DNA from: Pirellulales bacterium
GTDB taxonomy: Bacteria; Planctomycetota; Planctomycetia; Pirellulales; UBA1268
Direction of reading: 5' to 3'
Assembly (NCBI GenBank): GCA_041746715.1
Contig: JBGTGN010000023.1
Span: 12,245-76,244 of the forward strand
DNA length: 64,000 nt
The notes beneath the pieces are model-generated. The model saw nothing but the letters and a program-made list of their open reading frames with translations, was not told the origin of the DNA and did no database searches. The position numbers and the translations under genes are program-made. Shown in pieces: positions 6,492-20,698 of the stretch. Each line of letters begins with the position of its first letter. Positions within the stretch are counted from its first letter, which is position 1.

Positions 6492-6624
6492 TCGGCGCTC
6501 GGAATCCTAGAAAACGGCTGGCTTCGGCGATAGGCGTTTTTCGACGAGCCACTCGAGGAATTTTCGTCTGCTATAGTGAGGGGCCTGTTTCAGCGTTGCT
6601 CGAACAGGAGGCCCGATTCGGCGT

Positions 6625-6700
6625 GGTGGCTGTAGCTCAGTTGGTTAGAGCATCGGTTTGTGGTACCGAGGGTCGCGGGTTCGAGTCCCGTCAGTCACCC
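6625..6700 (+). tRNA. tRNA-His (anticodon GTG)
   Basis: Cloverleaf folded by hand. Encoded G-1 at 6625. Acceptor GTGGCTG (6626-6632) pairs with CAGTCAC (6692-6698). D arm GCTC/GAGC. Anticodon stem TCGGT/ACCGA with loop TTGTGGT (anticodon 6660-6662). 5-nt variable loop. T arm GCGGG-TTCGAGT-CCCGT. Discriminator C at 6699. A full CCA is not encoded. Confidence 0.92.
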
Positions 6701-6757
6701 ATTTTTCTGCCGCGATTTTTCGCCCGCATCTCGCCCGCCTTCCCTGGAGTCGCCCGC

Positions 6758-8155
6758 ATGTCTCGCTCTCCCCGCCGCCAGTCCGCGAGCCGCCGTTCGT
6801 TCCTTGCTGCGTCATCAACTGTTGCCGCTGGCTACTTCGTGGCACCGCTGACGCGAGGGGAAGATGCCGCTCCTCCAACGAGTGCCAACGAGGAGATTCG
6901 TTTCGCCTGCATCGGGATTGGCGGCAAGGGGCAGAGCGACTCCGCTGACGCGGCACGCGGGGGAAAGGTCGTGGCGGTTGCCGACGTAGACTCCAATCAA
7001 CTCAAGCGGGCCGCGAAGTCGTTCGCCAGTGCCATGCCCTACACCGACTTCCGGAAGATGCTCGATGAGATGGCTGGCGAGATCGACGCGGTCACCATCA
7101 GCACGCCAGACCACACCCACATCACCGCCGCGGCGATGACGCTGGAGCTTGGGAAGCACTGCTTCTGCCAGAAGCCACTCACGCGGTCGATCGCAGCCGC
7201 CCGTCTGCTTGGCACCCTTGCCCGTGAGAAGGGCGTCGCCACGCAGATGGGGAACCAGGGCACCGCCGCCGATTCCCTGCGTCGGGCTGCCTCGCTCATC
7301 CAGTCAGGTGCGCTCGGCATGGTGAAGGAAGTGCATGTCTGGACCAACCGGCCGGTGTGGCCGCAGGGGGGTGGTCGGCCTCCCGAAGCGCCAGTGCCTC
7401 CAAACCTCGACTGGGATCTTTGGATCGGCCCCTCGCCGATGCGTCCCTACGGCCCGGGGTATCACCCGTTCGCGTGGCGGGGCTTCTGGGACTTTGGCAC
7501 CGGTGCCCTGGGCGACATGGCCTGCCACACGTTCAACATGCCATTCATGGCGCTCAATCTCCGCGACCCTTCGAGCGTGCAGGCGCTGACCAGTGGTCAC
7601 AACAAGGAGACGTATCCCAAGTGGTCGATGATCGACTATGAGTTTCCAGCGCTCGGCGAGCGGCAGGCGGTGAAGGTCAAGTGGTACGACGGCGGGAAAC
7701 TCCCCGACGCCACCCTGTTCGCCGGATTCCCGGCGGAGCGGAAGGAAATGAAAGACGGTACGGTCCAGGAGAAGCCATTTCAGGTCGCGGCGAGGGGGGT
7801 GCTCATCGTCGGCGACAAGGAATCCCTCTACGCTCCGGGCGACTACTGCGACCAAGGGATCAAGCTCCAGAGTGGTGCCACGCCGGCCGACGTCGCGTTC
7901 GAGAAGTCGCCTGGCCACTTCCGGGAGTGGATCGACGCCATCAGGGGCGGACCGGCCGCGCGGAGCAACTTCCCCGACTACGCCGGCCCGCTCACCGAAA
8001 CGATCCTGCTCGGCAACCTCGCCGTGTGGGCCGCCGACACACCCGACGCTCAGGGGAAGAAGATCGAGTGGGATCCAGTGAAGCTCGTCGCCACGAATGC
8101 TCCCGAGGTGGAGCATGTCGTGCGGCCGACGTATCGCGAAGGCTGGCAGATGTGA
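6758..8155 (+). CDS. Gfo/Idh/MocA-family oxidoreductase with twin-arginine (TAT) signal
   Basis: ATG 6758 gives MSRSPRRQSASRRSFLAASSTVAAG (RRSFL TAT motif at 6788-6805). Rossmann segment IRFACIGIGGKGQSD. The track ORF start at 6596 runs through the tRNA and is rejected. Confidence 0.85.
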   Translation: MSRSPRRQSASRRSFLAASSTVAAGYFVAPLTRGEDAAPPTSANEEIRFACIGIGGKGQSDSADAARGGKVVAVADVDSNQLKRAAKSFASAMPYTDFRKMLDEMAGEIDAVTISTPDHTHITAAAMTLELGKHCFCQKPLTRSIAAARLLGTLAREKGVATQMGNQGTAADSLRRAASLIQSGALGMVKEVHVWTNRPVWPQGGGRPPEAPVPPNLDWDLWIGPSPMRPYGPGYHPFAWRGFWDFGTGALGDMACHTFNMPFMALNLRDPSSVQALTSGHNKETYPKWSMIDYEFPALGERQAVKVKWYDGGKLPDATLFAGFPAERKEMKDGTVQEKPFQVAARGVLIVGDKESLYAPGDYCDQGIKLQSGATPADVAFEKSPGHFREWIDAIRGGPAARSNFPDYAGPLTETILLGNLAVWAADTPDAQGKKIEWDPVKLVATNAPEVEHVVRPTYREGWQM

Positions 8156-8193: not shown

Positions 8194-9441
8194 ATGAAGA
8201 ATATCTGGGTAGCGGTCGCGTTCGTCGGCTTCCTGATGGCCGCGGTCGCCGCGGGTGCCCCAGGGCCGAATGATGCCGTGGTGGCGGCTGTCGAGCGGAT
8301 CGGTGGGACCGTGACCAAAGGAAGCGATGGCCATGTGACCGGCATCGCGTTGGCCAATCTCCCAACAACCGATGATGACCTTGCGGTCTTTGCGAAAATC
8401 CCGGGCCTCGAGTCGCTCGACGTCTGGGGTGCCGAGATCACGGACACGGGCATGGAATCGATCGGCCGGATGACGAGCCTTCGGAGACTCGTGCTCGAGA
8501 ACACGGATGTCGCCGACGAGGGAGCTGCGGCGATCGCCCGGCTCGAAAATCTTCGCGTGCTCAACCTTCGTCGATCCTCGAACATGACCGATACGGCGCT
8601 CGAGCACGTCGCGAAGCTCGAGCAGCTCGAGCAGCTCATCCTCCTCTACAACAACTTCACCGATGCAGGGCTTGCCCACCTGGCCCCACTTGGCTCGCTT
8701 CGCGTGCTTGACCTTCGAGGCTGCGCCCTGGTGAGCGACGCGGGGCTCGAGCATGTGGCCAAGCTCACGAGCCTCGAGCGGGTCAAACTCCGCTGCCCAA
8801 GCGTGAGTGACATGGGGCTTGCCCACGTGGCGACGCTCCCGAAACTTCGCGGCTTCGCGGTCGAGGACGGTCAAGTCACCGATGCCGGGCTCGCTCCTTT
8901 CGCCACCAAGACCGACATCGACGAAATTAACGTGATGCGGACGTTCATCGGCGACGAGGGCCTTGGCCATCTCGCCGGGCTTGGGAAACTCAAGCGGCTC
9001 GAGCTCCGCGGCACACTCGTAGGAGATGCCGGGCTCGTGCACCTGGCGAAGCTGCCCGAGCTCGTGCTGCTCGACGTGGCGGAAACGACCGTCGGCGACG
9101 ATGGCGTGGCGCACCTGGCGGGCCTCGGAAAACTCTCCGCGCTCGATCTCTGGGATACGCGGGTTGGCGATGAGGGGATGGCGGCAGTCGGCAAGATCAC
9201 CAGCCTTGTCTCGCTCAATCTCCAAAACACCAGCGTGGGTGACGAGGGCGTGTCGCGACTCGCCGGGCTCGAGCGGCTCGAGGATATCACGCTCTCCGGC
9301 ACGCAGATCGGCGATGCCGCCCTGGTGACGCTCGCCAAGCTCCCACGGCTTCGTCGCGTTGCGCTCGCCTTCACGGCCGTCGGCGACGAGGCGATCGCGG
9401 CGCTTGCTGCCAAGCGGCCGGCGCTTGTCATCGAGCGGTAG
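8194..9441 (+). CDS. Exported leucine-rich-repeat (RNI-like LRR) protein
   Basis: Signal peptide MKNIWVAVAFVGFLMAAVAAGA. About 14 tandem 24-25-aa repeats of the form L..L.L..T.V.D.G...LA.L. GAGGAG lies 7 nt upstream of the ATG. Confidence 0.8.
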   Translation: MKNIWVAVAFVGFLMAAVAAGAPGPNDAVVAAVERIGGTVTKGSDGHVTGIALANLPTTDDDLAVFAKIPGLESLDVWGAEITDTGMESIGRMTSLRRLVLENTDVADEGAAAIARLENLRVLNLRRSSNMTDTALEHVAKLEQLEQLILLYNNFTDAGLAHLAPLGSLRVLDLRGCALVSDAGLEHVAKLTSLERVKLRCPSVSDMGLAHVATLPKLRGFAVEDGQVTDAGLAPFATKTDIDEINVMRTFIGDEGLGHLAGLGKLKRLELRGTLVGDAGLVHLAKLPELVLLDVAETTVGDDGVAHLAGLGKLSALDLWDTRVGDEGMAAVGKITSLVSLNLQNTSVGDEGVSRLAGLERLEDITLSGTQIGDAALVTLAKLPRLRRVALAFTAVGDEAIAALAAKRPALVIER

Positions 9442-14488: not shown

Positions 14489-15475
14489 GTGGCAGACACG
14501 CCTGCTCAATCGTCCGATGCGGGTCGATCGATCGATGCCGGGAAGAGGCCTGCGCGAGTCTCCTCGCCGCTTCGTGGCGACCTCTCGACGGAGGCGACGT
14601 TTCTCTGGGGCGCCGCGGCGATCGTCACGGTTCTCCTCGCCTGGTGGCTCGCCACGGCGCCACTGTTTCCGGTGCCGGTCGAACATGTCGCCGAGCGGCC
14701 TCCGGAGCGTGAATATGTGCCGCTGGTGAGCCCTGTCATGCTACCGGGGCCAGGGGCGGTCTTCGAGGCGGTGCCCCGTGTGATCACGGAGCGAAAACTC
14801 CTCGCGAACACTCGCGTGACGCTCGTACGGGTGTTGATGGGTTTTGGGCTCGCGGCACTCATCGGTGTGCCACTGGGGGTGGCGGCCGCCTGCTTTCCGT
14901 CGGTGCGAGCGTTTCTCTATCCCGTGACGATCTTCGGTCGCAACATTCCTGTGGCCGCCCTCATCCCGCTCACGTTTTCACTTTTTGGGATCGGCGAGTT
15001 CCAGAAGGTGATGTTTCTCTTTGTCGCGAGCGTCGCGTTTGTGATCAGCGATGCGACGGCCGCCGTGCTGGAGGTGCCGCAGCGGTATGTCGATACGGCG
15101 CTCACCCTGGGGGCCTCGCGGCTCCAGATCATTCTCAAGGTGCTCGTGCCGCTCGCGGCACCCGTGATCTTCAACTCCTTGCGACTCCTCTTCGGCCTCG
15201 CCTTCGGCTACGTAATGCTGGCTGAGCTCGTAAAGTTTGGAAACGATTCCGGAGGGCTGGGCGACCTCATCAACATCTCCCAGCGGCGAGGGGACCGGGA
15301 GCCGATTCTCATCGTGCTCATCGTGATTCCGATCTTGGCCTACGCCATCGATCGAAGCCTGTGGTGGCTCCAGTGCGATCTCTTTCCGTATCGCTACGGC
15401 GGCAAGGGGCGGATTCCTCGGCTGTTCCGGAAACTCTTCAGCCCGCCGCCAGTGACCGTGGAGGTCAGGCCATGA
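14489..15475 (+). CDS. ABC transporter permease (NitT/TauT family)
   Basis: Multi-TM protein with an EAA-type loop DTALTLGASRLQIILKVLVPLAAP. It starts 6 nt after the SBP stop. The exact start is uncertain (GTG 14489). Confidence 0.85.
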   Translation: MADTPAQSSDAGRSIDAGKRPARVSSPLRGDLSTEATFLWGAAAIVTVLLAWWLATAPLFPVPVEHVAERPPEREYVPLVSPVMLPGPGAVFEAVPRVITERKLLANTRVTLVRVLMGFGLAALIGVPLGVAAACFPSVRAFLYPVTIFGRNIPVAALIPLTFSLFGIGEFQKVMFLFVASVAFVISDATAAVLEVPQRYVDTALTLGASRLQIILKVLVPLAAPVIFNSLRLLFGLAFGYVMLAELVKFGNDSGGLGDLINISQRRGDREPILIVLIVIPILAYAIDRSLWWLQCDLFPYRYGGKGRIPRLFRKLFSPPPVTVEVRP

Positions 15476-16372: not shown

Positions 16373-17212
16373 ATGTTCGAACAAATTGGTCGTTACCTCA
16401 GCGCTGCCTTCACCCACCACTGGAACCTGCTCTTTGTTGGGGCCGGGACGGCGGTGGCGTTTCTGAGTGGCCGCCCTGATGTCGTGATCCCGCTCGTTGC
16501 CGCCGGTGAGGTGCTCTACCTGGCGACCCTCATGACGAACGACCGATTTCGGGCGGCGATCGATGCCCAGGAAGCGAAGGACCGTCGGCAGGTCGATACA
16601 GCCGGAACCCAAGCGGCCTATGACCGTATCCGCAGCCAGCTTCCGCCGGCGCTTCTCACTCGATTCGATCAGCTTCGGGCCCACTGTCACAAGCTCACCG
16701 AGCTGGCCGGCAGCATGCGCGGCCCGGATGTGAGCGGCCCTGATCGGAATGCGGTGGAGTCACTCGAGCGGCTTCTGTGGGGGCATCTCCGCATGATCTG
16801 GAACGCGGCGAAGCTCTCCGAGTTTCTCGATCACACGGATGACGGTGCGCTCCGCAAGCGAGTCACGGAGCTGGAGAAGCGATTGGCTGGCATCCCAGAA
16901 GACGCTGGGGCTGCGCCTCTTCGAACAGCGGTAGACGACAACCTTCGGACAACACGGGAGCGGCTGGAAAACATCGACGAGGCCCGCCGCAAGCTCGACG
17001 TCGTTGCCGCGGAGATCGAGCGGCTTGAAACAAAGATCGCGGCCTTGGCCGAAGGCGCCGTGGCGCGCCGCGACGTCAGCGACATCGCCCAGCGTGTTGA
17101 CGAGGTCGCGGAGGGAATGCGTCGCACCGACGAGACCATGCGACAGCTCCAGCTTCCGCCCGAGCTCGAGGCGTTTGAAGCCCCCCCCGCGCTCCTCCGC
17201 GACGAAGCGTAG
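16373..17212 (+). CDS. Hypothetical membrane-anchored coiled-coil protein
   Basis: Two hydrophobic segments (WNLLFVGAGTAVAFL, VVIPLVAAGEVLYLATL), then ~200 aa of charged heptad-like helices (RKRVTELEKRLAG..., LDVVAAEIERLETKIAALAEG). It lies 37 nt after the ABC ATPase. No recognisable family. Confidence 0.6.
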   Translation: MFEQIGRYLSAAFTHHWNLLFVGAGTAVAFLSGRPDVVIPLVAAGEVLYLATLMTNDRFRAAIDAQEAKDRRQVDTAGTQAAYDRIRSQLPPALLTRFDQLRAHCHKLTELAGSMRGPDVSGPDRNAVESLERLLWGHLRMIWNAAKLSEFLDHTDDGALRKRVTELEKRLAGIPEDAGAAPLRTAVDDNLRTTRERLENIDEARRKLDVVAAEIERLETKIAALAEGAVARRDVSDIAQRVDEVAEGMRRTDETMRQLQLPPELEAFEAPPALLRDEA

Positions 17213-17617
17213 CCACGAGAGCTGGAAGCATTTACTCCCGGAGTCGGAGCCCAGGACCTCCGGGACTGGTTGAATGCGGGCTGCACTCGCTGCGCGGATG
17301 CGGCCATCCCCGCTGCTCGGGGTTGCCCATGCCGCATCGCCGGACGCTTCCTCCGGGCATCCTGCCCTCCGGTCGCTCGATGTAGCCCTCGCTTCGCCAT
17401 CCTGGCTTCGCTCGGCCTACAACGCCGGCTCCGCGGCACTGGCAACCTCTCGCGGATTCCATACTGGAGGCATTGAGGCACAGATACGTGGCCACCATTC
17501 GCTTGCGAATCCGCGTGCGCCCCGGCTGCTCAGGCGCACCACACCGCAGCGGTTACGAGCACGGGAGCCCGGAGGTGCGACCGCCGCCCGGAGGGGCGGG
17601 AAGACCGCCGGGGCCAT

Positions 17618-17660
17618 GGATGGCCCGCCGGTCGTAAAGAGGGATGGCCCGCCGTTCGTA
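17618..17660. repeat. Two copies of a 19-nt direct repeat (period 24 nt)
   Basis: ggatggcccgccggtcgta (17618-17636) and ggatggcccgccgttcgta (17642-17660), one mismatch. Immediately 3' of the Top6A-like stop codon. Confidence 0.7.
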
Positions 17661-17663
17661 TAG

Positions 17664-18842
17664 TCAGTCCAGCCAATTGCCTTCGGCGATTCGCTCGGGG
17701 GCATACGTCTCGGTGACGTAGCTGATGTCTTTCGAGATGAGAGCCTCGACTTCCAGCTTAAAGCCATTGGAGAGCATGGTCTCGATCTCCTTCTGCCATG
17801 GCTTTTTGCCAGCGAACCATGGGTAGGCGGCAATCTGCTTGGCTCGCTTGATGTCGGTGTCGTTGAGCGCGATTTGGACGCTTGGCGAGAGCTTGCACCG
17901 TTCGTAGTCGCGGCTGCGGAGACCGAGAAAGCGGGCCTCCGGTATGGCCATGCGTTTCGATTCGTACCCGAGATTGATCGAGCCTTGCTTGAGTACGGAG
18001 TAGATGTAGTACCCCCAGGGGTCGTTGTCGAGCAGGCAGTAGACAGGCAGCTTGAGCTCGTGGTGGAGACGGTGGAGCATTCGCCGGACACCGCGGGGGG
18101 GCTGGCCACCCCCGTGGGTCAGGAGGCAGTTGTGCTTCCGCCAAAACTTATCCTCGTTGAACCGTCGCCAGACAGTGTCTTTTTCGACATGGAGAATGAA
18201 CTTCGCGTCGCACGACTTGAACCGGATGACGTCGGCCTCGACGATCGACGGAATCGAGTAGCCGCTTGATCCCATGCGAGCGCAGTCGAGCTCATCGCCG
18301 GAATCGATGAGCGTGATCGGCCCGACGAGTCCGCCGCGGTTGCTGGCATAGACATGGAGCTCCTCGCGAAGGCTTTCGAGCGTGACTTCGAGGTCTTCGA
18401 TGATCGGGTCACACTCCTCCTGGGTCGCGAACGTCTCCTCGCGGGTGCCATCGATCGTGTGCTTGAGGAGGTAGTAGAGACCTCGGATACTGGTTGTTTT
18501 CTGTTGATCGATGAGCTGCTTGCATCCGGTGGCCACGAGCAAGGTTTGCATGTAGCTCTTGGCCTGGGAGAGGTTGAAGAGCTGCCGGCGATTCTTCTGG
18601 CTCCCCATCTCGATGATCTTCCGCGCCTTGTTGAAGCGGACGTTTGAGAGAGTGCGGGCAGGGATATCGAGCGAGGGATCCCGCCGTCTTTCGGCAGCAG
18701 CGGCGACCTCATCGGCAAGGCCCATGATGAGCTTGCGGGTCTTGAGATCGACGGGGGGGAGCTTTTCAGCCGGAGCTTTCGACGTGGATTTCGGCGTGCG
18801 GGCCATGCGCGGTAAGCTTCCGAGGGCTAGGATATGGGGCAA
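17664..18842 (-). CDS. top6A: DNA topoisomerase VI subunit A / Spo11-like protein (5Y-CAP plus Toprim)
   Basis: TSIRGLYYLLKH (RGLYY at 18471-18485). Toprim motifs ILHVEKDT (Glu at 18183-18185) and LLDNDPWGYYIY (DxD at 18021-18029). Also GGQPPRGVRRMLHRL and FKLEVEAL. Alternative start ATG 18806 (MARTPKS). Confidence 0.85.
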   Translation of the reverse strand: MPHILALGSLPRMARTPKSTSKAPAEKLPPVDLKTRKLIMGLADEVAAAAERRRDPSLDIPARTLSNVRFNKARKIIEMGSQKNRRQLFNLSQAKSYMQTLLVATGCKQLIDQQKTTSIRGLYYLLKHTIDGTREETFATQEECDPIIEDLEVTLESLREELHVYASNRGGLVGPITLIDSGDELDCARMGSSGYSIPSIVEADVIRFKSCDAKFILHVEKDTVWRRFNEDKFWRKHNCLLTHGGGQPPRGVRRMLHRLHHELKLPVYCLLDNDPWGYYIYSVLKQGSINLGYESKRMAIPEARFLGLRSRDYERCKLSPSVQIALNDTDIKRAKQIAAYPWFAGKKPWQKEIETMLSNGFKLEVEALISKDISYVTETYAPERIAEGNWLD

Positions 18843-18991: not shown

Positions 18992-20272
18992 CTACGAAAT
19001 GACCTCATCGGCCCGGCCGACGATTCGGCGGACAAAATGTGGGCCGTGTGCAGCCGTGGGTTTTGCCGGAGCCTGAGCAGTCGGCTTGGCACCGAAGAAC
19101 TTGGCCCCAAAAAACTCGGCGATCCTTGCCACGACCGTGTGCTGCTCGTCGGCCCGGAGTTCGGGGAAGATCGGCAGGGCAAGCGTCTCAATCGCCGCCT
19201 GCTCGGTTTGCGGGAGATCGCCCTGCCGCCAGCCGAGGTGTGCGAAGCAGGCCTGGAGATGGAGCGGGACGGGATAGTAGATCTCCGTGCCCACACCGCA
19301 TGCCGCAAGGTGTTTGCGGAGGGCATCCCGCTGTCCATCGGCGATTCGGATCACGTATTGATTCCAGACATGCCGGCCTCGGGTCTCGTCGCTCGGCACG
19401 GTCACATGTTCGGCGAGATCATGAGCGGCAAAGAGATCGGAGTAGCGGGCGGCGTTTTCCTGCCGGCTGGTGGTCCAGGCATCGAGGTGGGGGAGCTTGA
19501 CCCGTAGCACCGCAGCCTGGATCGAGTCGAGGCGGCTATTGATGCCGATGAGATCGTGATAGTAGCGAGGCTCCATGCCATGGACACGAAGAAGCCTGAG
19601 CGTCTTGGCGAGGTCATCGCGGGTGGTGGTCACGAAGCCGCCATCGCCGGCACCACCGAGGTTCTTCGTGGGGTAGAAACTGAAGCAACCGATGTCACCC
19701 AGTCCGCCCGAGGAGCGACCGTGCCAGGTGGAAAGAATAGACTGCGCTGCATCTTCCACGATGGGCACGCCAGCCGCCTCGGCGATTGGCGCGAGGGCGT
19801 CCATGTCGGCGGTGCGGCCGAAGAGATGGACGGGGATAATGGCCCGGCAGCGACGGCTCACCTTCCGCCGCACGTCTTCAGGATCGATGAGATACGTCGT
19901 CGGATCGATATCGGCAAAGATCGGGATCGCGCCGAGACGGGTCACGGCGCTGGCCGTGGCAAAGAAGGTGTAGCTCGGCAGCACCACCTCGTCACCCATG
20001 CCCACACCCAGTGCCATGAGCGCTAGGAGAAGGGCATCGCTCCCGGAGGCGCAGCTAATGGCGTGGGGGACATCGAGCGCGGCGGCGAGTTCTTCCTCGA
20101 GCGCGGTCACATCGGGGCCGAGCACGAAGCGGCCGGAGTCACACACGCGATCGATCGCGGCCCGAATCTCCCCACGGAGCACGCTGAATTGGCGATCTAA
20201 GGCGAGAAGGGGCACCGAGGCCAGCAACGCAGGGGCAGGGGCTAGGGGCTCGGACGGCGTGACGCTGCTCAT
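18992..20272 (-). CDS. DegT/DnrJ/EryC1/StrS-family PLP-dependent sugar aminotransferase
   Basis: LDRQFSVLRGEIRAAIDRVCDSGRFVLGP, AISCASGSDALLLAL, and the PLP-Lys context CFSFYPTKNLGGAGDGG. Start trimmed to ATG 20272 (MSSVTPSEP); the track start at 20599 adds 109 non-homologous residues. Confidence 0.85.
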   Translation of the reverse strand: MSSVTPSEPLAPAPALLASVPLLALDRQFSVLRGEIRAAIDRVCDSGRFVLGPDVTALEEELAAALDVPHAISCASGSDALLLALMALGVGMGDEVVLPSYTFFATASAVTRLGAIPIFADIDPTTYLIDPEDVRRKVSRRCRAIIPVHLFGRTADMDALAPIAEAAGVPIVEDAAQSILSTWHGRSSGGLGDIGCFSFYPTKNLGGAGDGGFVTTTRDDLAKTLRLLRVHGMEPRYYHDLIGINSRLDSIQAAVLRVKLPHLDAWTTSRQENAARYSDLFAAHDLAEHVTVPSDETRGRHVWNQYVIRIADGQRDALRKHLAACGVGTEIYYPVPLHLQACFAHLGWRQGDLPQTEQAAIETLALPIFPELRADEQHTVVARIAEFFGAKFFGAKPTAQAPAKPTAAHGPHFVRRIVGRADEVIS

Positions 20273-20698
20273 GGTGGCGAAGAATCTCCGAGGCGTGCTC
20301 ACGCGATTCGCGGGCCGAAAAGCCGGCGCCGTCGGCATCGCTTGTTCAATAGTTTCCATCGTCACGACTGCCACTGCCGCTCCAATCCAAGCGGCCCGCA
20401 GCCTGCACGGGAAGCCAGGAAATAGGTTCGCCGGCCATCCACCGTCAAGGGCAGGGTCGCGGCATGGTGGGGTCGGCAAGGCCGGTAGTCTGGCGAGCGC
20501 CGCTCGAAAGAAGGGGCGGATCGGAGTTCCTGGGAGGTTCGCCACTCTGCCCGTTTGACAGCGTTCCCGTGGCCACCCTAGATTCTTGGGCAGCATCAAG
20601 GGTTCCAGGTTCGTGCAACACCGGTGTCACGACCGGGGAAACCCCGGAGGAGAGTTTGTCGATCCCGTCTGTTCGCAAGTGACGGGTTCGCATGTCGG

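Follow-up and report, generated by a model that had tools for sequence, protein, structure and literature searches.

We found that a 64-kb stretch of Planctomycete DNA, called the window below, holds a complete gene for the DNA-cutting A subunit of a canonical type IIB topoisomerase, topoisomerase VI (Topo VI). Judged by domain models and alignments, its membership in this family is unambiguous. The window contains no gene for the B subunit, and very probably the protein belongs to an ordinary Topo VI whose B gene lies at an unlinked locus. Both Topo VI subunits have already been described for Pirellulales (PMC11302465), and the window's gene is one more member. The evidence for this reading comes from the protein itself, from the two gene arrangements that Planctomycetes display, and from three indirect links between solo top6A and stand-alone top6B genes.

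The top6A gene and its surroundings

The gene lies on the reverse strand of the window. The features of the gene and its product are as follows.

17664..18842, reverse strand: maximal top6A reading frame, 392 codons from a TTG
17664..18806, reverse strand: top6A coding sequence, 380 amino acids from the probable start, ATG 18806
18567..18749, reverse strand: N-terminal segment, approximately residues 20 to 80 (coverage by NF003333 and 2zbk_A, alignment)
18471..18485, reverse strand: 5Y-CAP active-site motif RGLYY (structure alignment, conservation)
18183..18185, reverse strand: Toprim metal-binding Glu of HVEKDT, E208 in the 380-residue numbering (alignment, conservation)
18021..18029, reverse strand: Toprim DxD of DNDPWG, D260 and D262 (alignment, conservation)
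17739..17762, reverse strand: FKLEVEAL, a T2BI dimer-interface box, (R/K)xExxA/S, of the Topo VI type (motif position)

The sequence-only reading from which this analysis started had taken the gene to span 17664 to 18842. The frame exists, and its start is better placed at the internal ATG. The 380-residue product of that ATG has an exact match among public assemblies, and homologues measure 379 to 384 residues. Conversely, an exact look-up of the 392-residue TTG-start product among public proteins returned no match. Because the shorter form is exactly on record and agrees with the length of its homologues, ATG 18806 is probably the true start and TTG 18842 is not.

Domain models and alignment both describe a complete Top6A with intact catalytic residues, which bears out the initial description of a complete gene collinear with archaeal Top6A. 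Three Pfam models matched above their cut-offs: TP6A_N (PF04406; 55 bits, with a cut-off of 26 bits), Topo_VI_alpha (32 bits), and TOP6A-Spo11_Toprim (PF21180; 197 bits, covering model positions 1 to 170 of 170). The NCBIfam equivalog NF003333 scored 544 bits against a cut-off of 465 and was covered from position 8 to 367 of 367. Top6A of S. shibatae (PDB 2zbk_A) aligned with an E value of 2e-72 from chain residue 34, and end-to-end alignments were also obtained with the Top6A structures of M. jannaschii and M. mazei.

The four motifs RGLYY, HVEKDT, DNDPWG, and FKLEVEAL had been correctly located from the start. The catalytic tyrosine is the second Y of RGLYY (codon 18471 to 18473; Y112 in the 380-residue numbering). 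This motif aligns to R99/Y103 of M. jannaschii, and its conserved arginine is encoded at 18483 to 18485. The definition of the T2BI box follows published work (PMC7671362). According to the same source, the N-terminal segment of Top6A contacts Top6B in archaeal Topo VI and is missing in Mini-A and Topo VIII. Alignment showed that this B-binding segment is conserved in both Planctomycete Top6A clades described below. Conservation of the tyrosine and the Toprim residues in homologues had been put forward as a check on the initial reading; all catalytic residues, together with the B-binding N terminus, were invariant in nine Planctomycete Top6A sequences.

The surroundings are those of an ordinary Planctomycete chromosome. 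GC content is uniform (61 to 65%), and the genes include those for sulfatases, BBP7, PQQ and LRR proteins, UbiD, MgsA, PspA, an ABC transporter, Tex, a release factor, DprA, and SHMT. The immediate neighborhood of top6A is composed as follows.

18992..20599, reverse strand: DegT/DnrJ/EryC1 aminotransferase, the conserved upstream neighbor of the solo top6A clade (Pfam, synteny)
17213..17663, no strand assigned: convergent intergenic tract of 451 nt between top6A and the coiled-coil ORF (ORF map)
16373..17212, forward strand: 279-residue coiled-coil ORF, convergent with top6A, conserved and present only in loci of the solo top6A clade

An aminotransferase upstream and a non-coding tract downstream had both been recognized, the latter having an exact length of 451 nt. 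The length of this intergenic tract differs among close relatives, from 75 to 739 nt. Pfam scans of the window's ORFs detected no mobile-element features in the flanks of top6A.

We searched the window for a B subunit in three ways. The S. shibatae Top6B query, whose sequence was checked against PDB 2zbk_B and 1mx0, gave a best E value of 2 with phmmer --max against the six-frame translation of the 64 kb and a best E value of 1 with tblastn. A profile of 86 Planctomycete Top6B sequences had no match in the window at E ≤ 10. Moreover, a Pfam scan of the 40 larger ORFs of the window detected no HATPase_c domain or other GHKL ATPase. Since the archaeal query, the Planctomycete profile, and Pfam HATPase_c all failed to find a match, the window is free of Top6B, as had been claimed at the outset. 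When archaeal Top6B and the window's Top6A were searched by tblastn against a plasmid collection, only haloarchaeal megaplasmids were recovered, with no bacterial Top6B.

Linked and unlinked top6 genes in Planctomycetes

Homologue searches revealed two ARRANGEMENTS among Planctomycete top6A genes: solo genes near DegT and Tex, and genes adjoining top6B. The window's Top6A had at least 8,000 matches among 5.8 billion proteins searched. The best 120 of these were 85 to 100% identical and 379 to 384 residues long, save for a few longer gene calls, and bore the names Pirellulales, Planctomycetaceae, or Planctomycetota bacterium. The NCBI pipeline misnames these matches "DNA topoisomerase IV subunit A." Among 1.84 billion cluster representatives, searched exhaustively, there were 1,386 relatives at E ≤ 1e-10; the nearest representative (P0121, at locus L010) was 72% identical, and the next full-length ones were 40 to 50% identical.

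In the loci of close relatives, DegT adjoins top6A and is followed by Tex, IF-1, a release factor, and DprA, with no top6B within 10 kb. At L010, the gene that ends 4 bases before top6A encodes a Top6B, incomplete at the contig end. This Top6B carries an inserted second H2TH-like segment, which fits the "bundle" published for P. staleyi. Used as a query, it also had at least 8,000 matches; the best 120 were 77 to 96% identical, and several of them are named "DNA topoisomerase VI subunit B [Pirellulales bacterium]." The enzyme had been described beforehand as sporadic in bacteria, a statement that holds in general and misleads here, given at least 8,000 matches for each subunit and its published occurrence in Pirellulales (PMC11302465). 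Five top6B matches were looked up, and all five had a top6A of 383 to 389 residues immediately downstream, as at L010. Likewise, top6B lay immediately upstream of the non-solo top6A in all seven loci examined individually. The operon was also present in 40 metagenome loci and 29 genome loci of other Planctomycetes.

The two types of A subunit differ in sequence as well. Operon-type A subunits are 76 to 91% identical among themselves and 67 to 73% identical to the window's Top6A, which is 84 to 87% identical to its own close relatives. Identity is 84 to 95% within the solo clade as a whole and 67 to 78% between solo and operon-type A. A metagenome scan using an alignment of both Top6A types as the query returned 80 loci. 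Twenty-nine were at least 84% identical to the window's Top6A; none of them had top6B nearby, and almost all had DegT and Tex. The other 51 were 70 to 78% identical, and 40 of these had top6B directly upstream. Among the remaining 11, eight offered no upstream sequence, and three (L071, L077, and L095) have room for a B gene yet lack one.

Altogether, top6B was found in the flanks examined of none of the 36 loci of the solo clade, and DegT/Tex synteny was present in nearly all of them. The solo A clade was monophyletic in 100 of 100 bootstraps. In the neighbor-joining tree, it formed one lineage nested among operon lineages at ordinary depth. Its sister was L054 in 28% of bootstraps, L057 in 13%, and L144 in 5 to 13%; A/B co-phylogeny traced through the sister group appears compatible. 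An ancestral Planctomycete top6B-top6A operon would have been broken up in the lineage of the solo clade, a step that forms part of the reading we consider very probable as a whole.

We scanned a genome collection with a Top6B alignment headed by a consensus sequence, to keep any single lineage from dominating the ranking, and obtained 80 B loci. Fifty-six were Pirellulales-type top6B loci from named genomes: 29 adjoined top6A, including one on the closed chromosome of Lacipirellula limnantheis (L117), 14 had no top6A in flanks of at least 2.5 kb, and usually 5 to 10 kb, on each side, and 13 were too short. The B tree contained one tight stand-alone clade of ten loci (L122, L126, and L128 to L135), five of them demonstrably without A in the flanks and the other five short. 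Its Top6B proteins have the N-box, the G1 and G2 boxes, and the switch lysine intact. The clade is abundant, as a homologue search with its marine member L131 yielded more than 120 clusters at 79 to 94% identity. Other stand-alone B genes (L106, L115, and L137 to L145), together with the three A genes that lack a B, suggest that splits happened more than once. A division of Top6B into clades by length (approximately 645 versus 720 residues) was discarded, as it reflects start-codon calls; both of the sequence subgroups that were then checked proved to be operon-type.

Links between solo top6A and stand-alone top6B

The first link is base composition together with habitat. GC content is 67 to 71% in the stand-alone B clade, with one marine member at 49%, and 58 to 72% in solo A loci, with a marine branch at 47 to 49%.

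The second link comes from tetranucleotide signatures, computed with the top6 genes masked and GC normalized. The nearest out-of-class neighbors of stand-alone-B loci were solo-A loci in 21 of 24 cases, even though there were 53 operon loci to 22 solo loci. For the window, the highest correlation overall was with a stand-alone-B locus (L133; r = 0.94), and the marine B locus L131 paired with the marine loci L042 and L003 at an r of about 0.9. Within the GC range 0.60 to 0.72, the mean r between solo-A and stand-alone-B loci was 0.78, on a par with the within-class values (0.79 to 0.81), compared to 0.69 to 0.70 against operon loci.

The third link is a structured element in the tract downstream of top6A, which was first met as blastn matches of 75 to 81% identity, located 3′ of top6A in other solo loci and next to top6B in stand-alone loci. 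This tract holds the following.

17306..17462, forward strand: 156-nt structured element, a closing stem and two hairpins with CAUCCUG loops (folding, covariation)
17611..17626, reverse strand: small hairpin GGGCcatccatgGCCC of the same motif type, just 3′ of the top6A stop, likely a terminator hairpin

Of the 36 solo-A loci, 7 carry this lineage-specific element, as do 7 of the 10 stand-alone-B loci; the 131 other loci, which cover 1.73 Mb, have no copy (Fisher P = 1e-9). Because base composition with habitat, tetranucleotide signatures, and the element agree and are three independent, though indirect, links, the simplest reading is that solo A and stand-alone B are halves of one enzyme. From these sequence comparisons, we infer that the two genes reside in one genome. 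Pairing them by neighboring NCBI protein accessions was uninformative, as the annotated proteins were sampled from different MAGs.

In the window, 201 nt separate the element from the stop codon of top6A, and 94 nt separate it from that of the convergent coiled-coil ORF. Its minimum free energies on the two strands are −70.6 and −83.4 kcal/mol, with z scores of −4.7 and −5.1. In an alignment of 14 copies, 89% of cells pair, compared to 30 to 46% in slid controls. Compensatory changes were seen in 20 of 37 pairs, compared to 11.5 ± 1.7 in shuffles, and none of 500 shuffles reached 20. There are hardly any G-U pairs, so both strands retain complementarity. No Rfam family reached the gathering score anywhere in the window, and none matched at E ≤ 1 within positions 17200 to 17680. 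A covariance model run with filters off found exactly one copy in the 64-kb window, and the match was strand specific (145 versus 19 bits).

In seven loci, a copy lies 38 to 283 nt downstream of the top6A stop. At top6B, the distance beyond the stop is 5 to 65 nt in four loci and larger in another two. Two loci have extra copies 1.25 to 2 kb upstream of B, and orientation relative to the gene is mixed. At A and B loci alike, the element is placed between top6 and a convergent gene. We rejected the possibility that it is part of the coiled-coil neighbor, as that gene is absent from B loci. The tract is made of small GGC-CATCC(A)TG-GCC hairpins. These are not a generic window-wide repeat, since the CATCC(A)TG hairpin occurs in the top6A 3′ tract alone. 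Finally, presence or absence of the element differs between close relatives.

REP/BIME-type extragenic palindromes are intergenic sequences at 3′ ends, composed of small hairpins and variable in their presence. Given its site between convergent genes, its variable presence, and its composition of small hairpins, the element behaves in a REP/BIME-like manner, and it resembles these palindromes in keeping Watson-Crick complementarity with almost no G-U pairs. Unlike them, it has one copy in 64 kb and is concentrated at two specific genes instead of at many 3′ ends. That it is a functional device coupling the unlinked top6A and top6B after the operon split is a speculative idea that we consider unlikely. 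Such a device could serve both genes in 3′ processing, stability, or termination; it could also be a hairpin that binds a protein, or a cruciform that senses supercoiling and tunes both subunits. The alternative is a passive extragenic repeat, with insertion preference or history instead of function accounting for its distribution.

Competing readings and the predicted enzyme

We weighed three other readings of the solo gene. The window could carry a second Top6A paralogue with a diverged role, alongside a complete top6B-top6A operon; its product might break DNA in the manner of Spo11, or serve as an alternative A for the same B subunit, comparable to plant SPO11-1/2/3. This reading draws on the fact that each top6B first reached by homologue search adjoined another top6A, 67 to 73% identical, and on marine operon-type loci (L080 and L084 to L086; GC 46 to 49%) that match the marine solo loci in GC. 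Nevertheless, a stand-alone top6B clade of like composition, with the same habitat split and repeat element, accounts for the partner. A paralogue also predicts two B genes per genome, and no genome occurred twice among the 80 B loci. Furthermore, the position of the solo clade, at ordinary depth among the operon lineages, is not that of a divergent paralogue, and its catalytic and B-binding residues are all kept. We therefore regard a second paralogue as improbable.

A true orphan A subunit, cutting or binding DNA alone or with an unrelated partner in a genome devoid of Top6B, is less probable still. It agrees with the absence of B from the 64 kb and from the flanks examined of the 36 related loci, and the same-genome link to B is itself inferential. 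An orphan would, however, leave the stand-alone top6B of a matching lineage without an A partner. The N-terminal segment for B binding is equally conserved in solo and operon-type A, and B has been reported in all Pirellulales examined (PMC11302465). The very strong purifying selection on the protein (84 to 95% identity across freshwater and marine members) fits an essential holoenzyme. The initial alternatives had been a split Topo VI or an orphan A; the stand-alone top6B clade and the B-binding N terminus speak for the former, and the latter gained no support.

The remaining candidate, a Top6A-like nuclease of a mobile element or defense system (Mini-A, Topo VIII, or Wadjet JetD/MksG), has in its favor a weak PADLOC JetD match over the Toprim region (23 bits, E = 8e-6) and faint SMC-like coiled-coil matches of the neighboring ORF (E = 3e-4 to 9e-3), and it is hardly credible against Top6A models scoring 197 to 544 bits, the absence of JetA/B/C genes and PHROG matches, the full N terminus, the uniform GC of the window, and a housekeeping neighborhood conserved across dozens of genomes.

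Each of these systems was also compared individually. Scans for defense-system and viral families gave nothing beyond a weak Toprim similarity to JetD, which is expected; JetD/MksG was rejected, as this similarity is weak and there are no genes for an SMC-like JetC or a kleisin. The window's Top6A shares the 5Y-CAP and Toprim core with Mini-A and Topo VIII (Takahashi et al. 2020, PMC7671362). Those proteins are plasmid or viral, lack the N-terminal B-binding part, and have xWELDAL or RVELNAM boxes (PMC7671362), unlike the window's protein with its N terminus, KLEVEAL box, and chromosomal housekeeping context. The likeness to stand-alone A proteins of mobile elements that the sequence-only reading had raised did not hold: the full-length N terminus, the FKLEVEAL box, the lack of a PHROG match, and conserved chromosomal synteny speak against Mini-A. 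Topo VIII, which has an RVELNAM box and resides on plasmids or integrated elements with its B and A moieties joined in one protein or side by side, was rejected as well, as the 380-residue product is an A moiety alone, with no adjacent B and no mobile-element features in its flanks.

With a split Topo VI as the favored reading, top6A, which follows the DegT gene near tex, a prfB-like gene, and dprA, would have its partner top6B standing alone at another chromosomal locus. By analogy with the archaeal enzymes, the two products would assemble as an A2B2 heterotetramer. ATP binding would dimerize the GHKL domains of B, so that one duplex is captured, and Y112, with Mg2+ held on E208, D260, and D262, would cut the other duplex. 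Strand passage would then lead to decatenation or relaxation of DNA. On the basis of the literature, Topo VI probably does the work of Topo IV here. Topo VI-A and Topo VI-B occur in 17 bacterial families, including Pirellulaceae, Lacipirellulaceae, and Thermoguttaceae (Allen & Maxwell 2024, PMC11302465). The same study found B in all Pirellulales examined and no ParC/ParE in Topo VI-bearing Planctomycete representatives, and it described, in the Top6B transducer of Pirellula staleyi, a unique bundle of helices.

The published Topo VI of Pirellulales (Pirellula staleyi, Lacipirellula parvula, and Thermogutta terrifontis; PMC11302465) comes from the same order and is the same enzyme, presumed in both cases to be a decatenase that replaces the absent Topo IV. 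The Top6B relatives found here share with P. staleyi an additional helical (H2TH-like) segment inserted into the transducer. One large clade has its subunit genes unlinked, while other Planctomycete lineages, L. limnantheis among them, have a B-A operon. Compared with archaeal Topo VI (S. shibatae 2ZBK, M. mazei 2Q2E, and M. jannaschii 1D3Y), the A subunit is collinear throughout and shares the catalytic Arg/Tyr, the Glu, the DxD, and the dimer-interface box; the differences are the bacterial host, the nonadjacent genes, and a probable partner B with a lineage-specific insertion. The eukaryotic Spo11/TopoVIB-like complex likewise has a homologous A subunit and an unlinked partner gene. Unlike the degenerate B-like protein of that complex, the probable partner here is a canonical GHKL Top6B whose ATP-binding boxes are all present, and the window's Top6A gives no sign of a break-only role.

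Neither gene order nor bacterial Top6 paralogues are discussed in PMC11302465, whose supplement consists of taxon tables without accessions or sequences, and a search of the literature on topoisomerase VI in Rhodopirellula returned nothing useful. Beyond the literature, our results indicate that Planctomycetes hold both a B-A operon, in most lineages, and unlinked genes, the latter in at least one large freshwater and marine clade and several smaller lineages. Since both arrangements exist in Planctomycetes, a missing adjacent B is no evidence of an orphan A there. The unlinked top6 genes also share a covarying 3′ element that matches no described RNA family. If this element is functional, it would be an example of a split operon that keeps its two products coordinated.

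A structured element beside the top6 genes

The 156-nt element folds into two CAUCCUG-capped hairpins inside a closing stem, with compensatory changes at 20 of its 37 pairs; a comparison with Rfam gave no match for it. It was found at no loci other than those of solo top6A and stand-alone top6B in a single lineage of Pirellulales, where it lies mostly directly 3' of the top6A or top6B stop codon. The copies are listed below by locus (L-numbers denote other top6A or top6B loci).

Copies of the 156-nt element
Window 17306-17462, plus strand, one copy
L002 11290-11444, one copy
L018 11335-11493, one copy
L019 11182-11336, one copy
L020 11421-11578, one copy
L021 11427-11584 and 5310-5463, two copies
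L023 4337-4493, one copy
L126 12193-12350, one copy
L128 2058-2214, one copy
L130 8565-8748, one copy
L132 3583-3739, one copy
L134 7945-8100, 8249-8404 and 12118-12273, three copies
L135 12036-12140, one copy

At L134, the upstream pair (7945-8100 and 8249-8404) lies about 1.6 to 2 kb 5' of the conserved top6B start. These two copies, spaced 304 nt apart, score identically against the model (130.3 bits), and the third copy is found 5 nt beyond the top6B stop.

In the window, a 279-aa coiled-coil ORF (16373-17212, plus strand) is convergent with top6A and was kept at 63-78% identity at solo-clade loci only. It matched no Pfam family above threshold, and its only similarities were faint coiled-coil matches of the SMC type (DndD, PbeC, JetC). 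The mechanically called ORF for a GFO/IDH/MocA oxidoreductase (6596-8155, plus strand) overlaps at its 5' end a tRNA gene (6626-6699, plus strand). Since its Pfam match begins at residue 101, the true start must lie 3' of the tRNA.

Unlinked subunit genes and Planctomycete Top6B

Beyond the window's clade, top6A and top6B were unlinked in further Planctomycete lineages, with A found without B at L071, L077 and L095, and B without A at L106, L115, L137-L141, L143 and L145. The top6B-top6A operon seems to have come apart in several independent events.

Every Planctomycete Top6B protein observed (L010 1-1626; L011 8001-10115; the homologous proteins P0274 and P0345; and others) carries an extra H2TH-like segment inserted in the transducer, with the pattern ESDARTLRQFL..TF.GLG...A.KIL...LGTRQSP. 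This second H2TH-like segment is probably what was described in the Top6B of Pirellula staleyi as a "unique helical bundle". The top6B of L128 (34-1941), on a 2.9-kb contig, has an apparent in-frame stop near 1617, and the protein alignment runs on to 1941; the stop may reflect a frameshift or an assembly error. Pirellulales-type top6B was also present in MAGs whose record titles name Candidatus Kuenenia, Chitinophagaceae, Terriglobia, Sulfopaludibacter or Deltaproteobacteria (L098, L099, L104, L122, L128, L129, L135 and L150), titles that probably result from mis-binning or mislabelling.

Unusual Top6A forms and the annotation of Top6A

Several Top6A representatives of 770-950 aa (P0131, P0133, P0136, P0138, P0140, P0143 and similar proteins) aligned to the query as two segments set apart from each other, as if a large insertion, possibly an intein, interrupted their Top6A sequence close to the position of residues 260-265 in the window's protein. 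Several hundred extra residues precede the Top6A-like part in P0180 (950 aa), P0204 (746 aa) and P0264 (616 aa); these proteins may represent fusions of B with A or be Topo VIII-like. At L014, a called gene of 47 aa (15070-15213) with a weak match to the TOP6A Toprim domain, about 650 nt 3' of an intact top6A, may be the leftover of a duplicated copy.

Both NCBIfam and PGAP label Top6A "DNA topoisomerase IV subunit A", which is a misnomer. Surveys based on annotation could therefore miss Topo VI, and the same label could falsely imply the presence of Topo IV.
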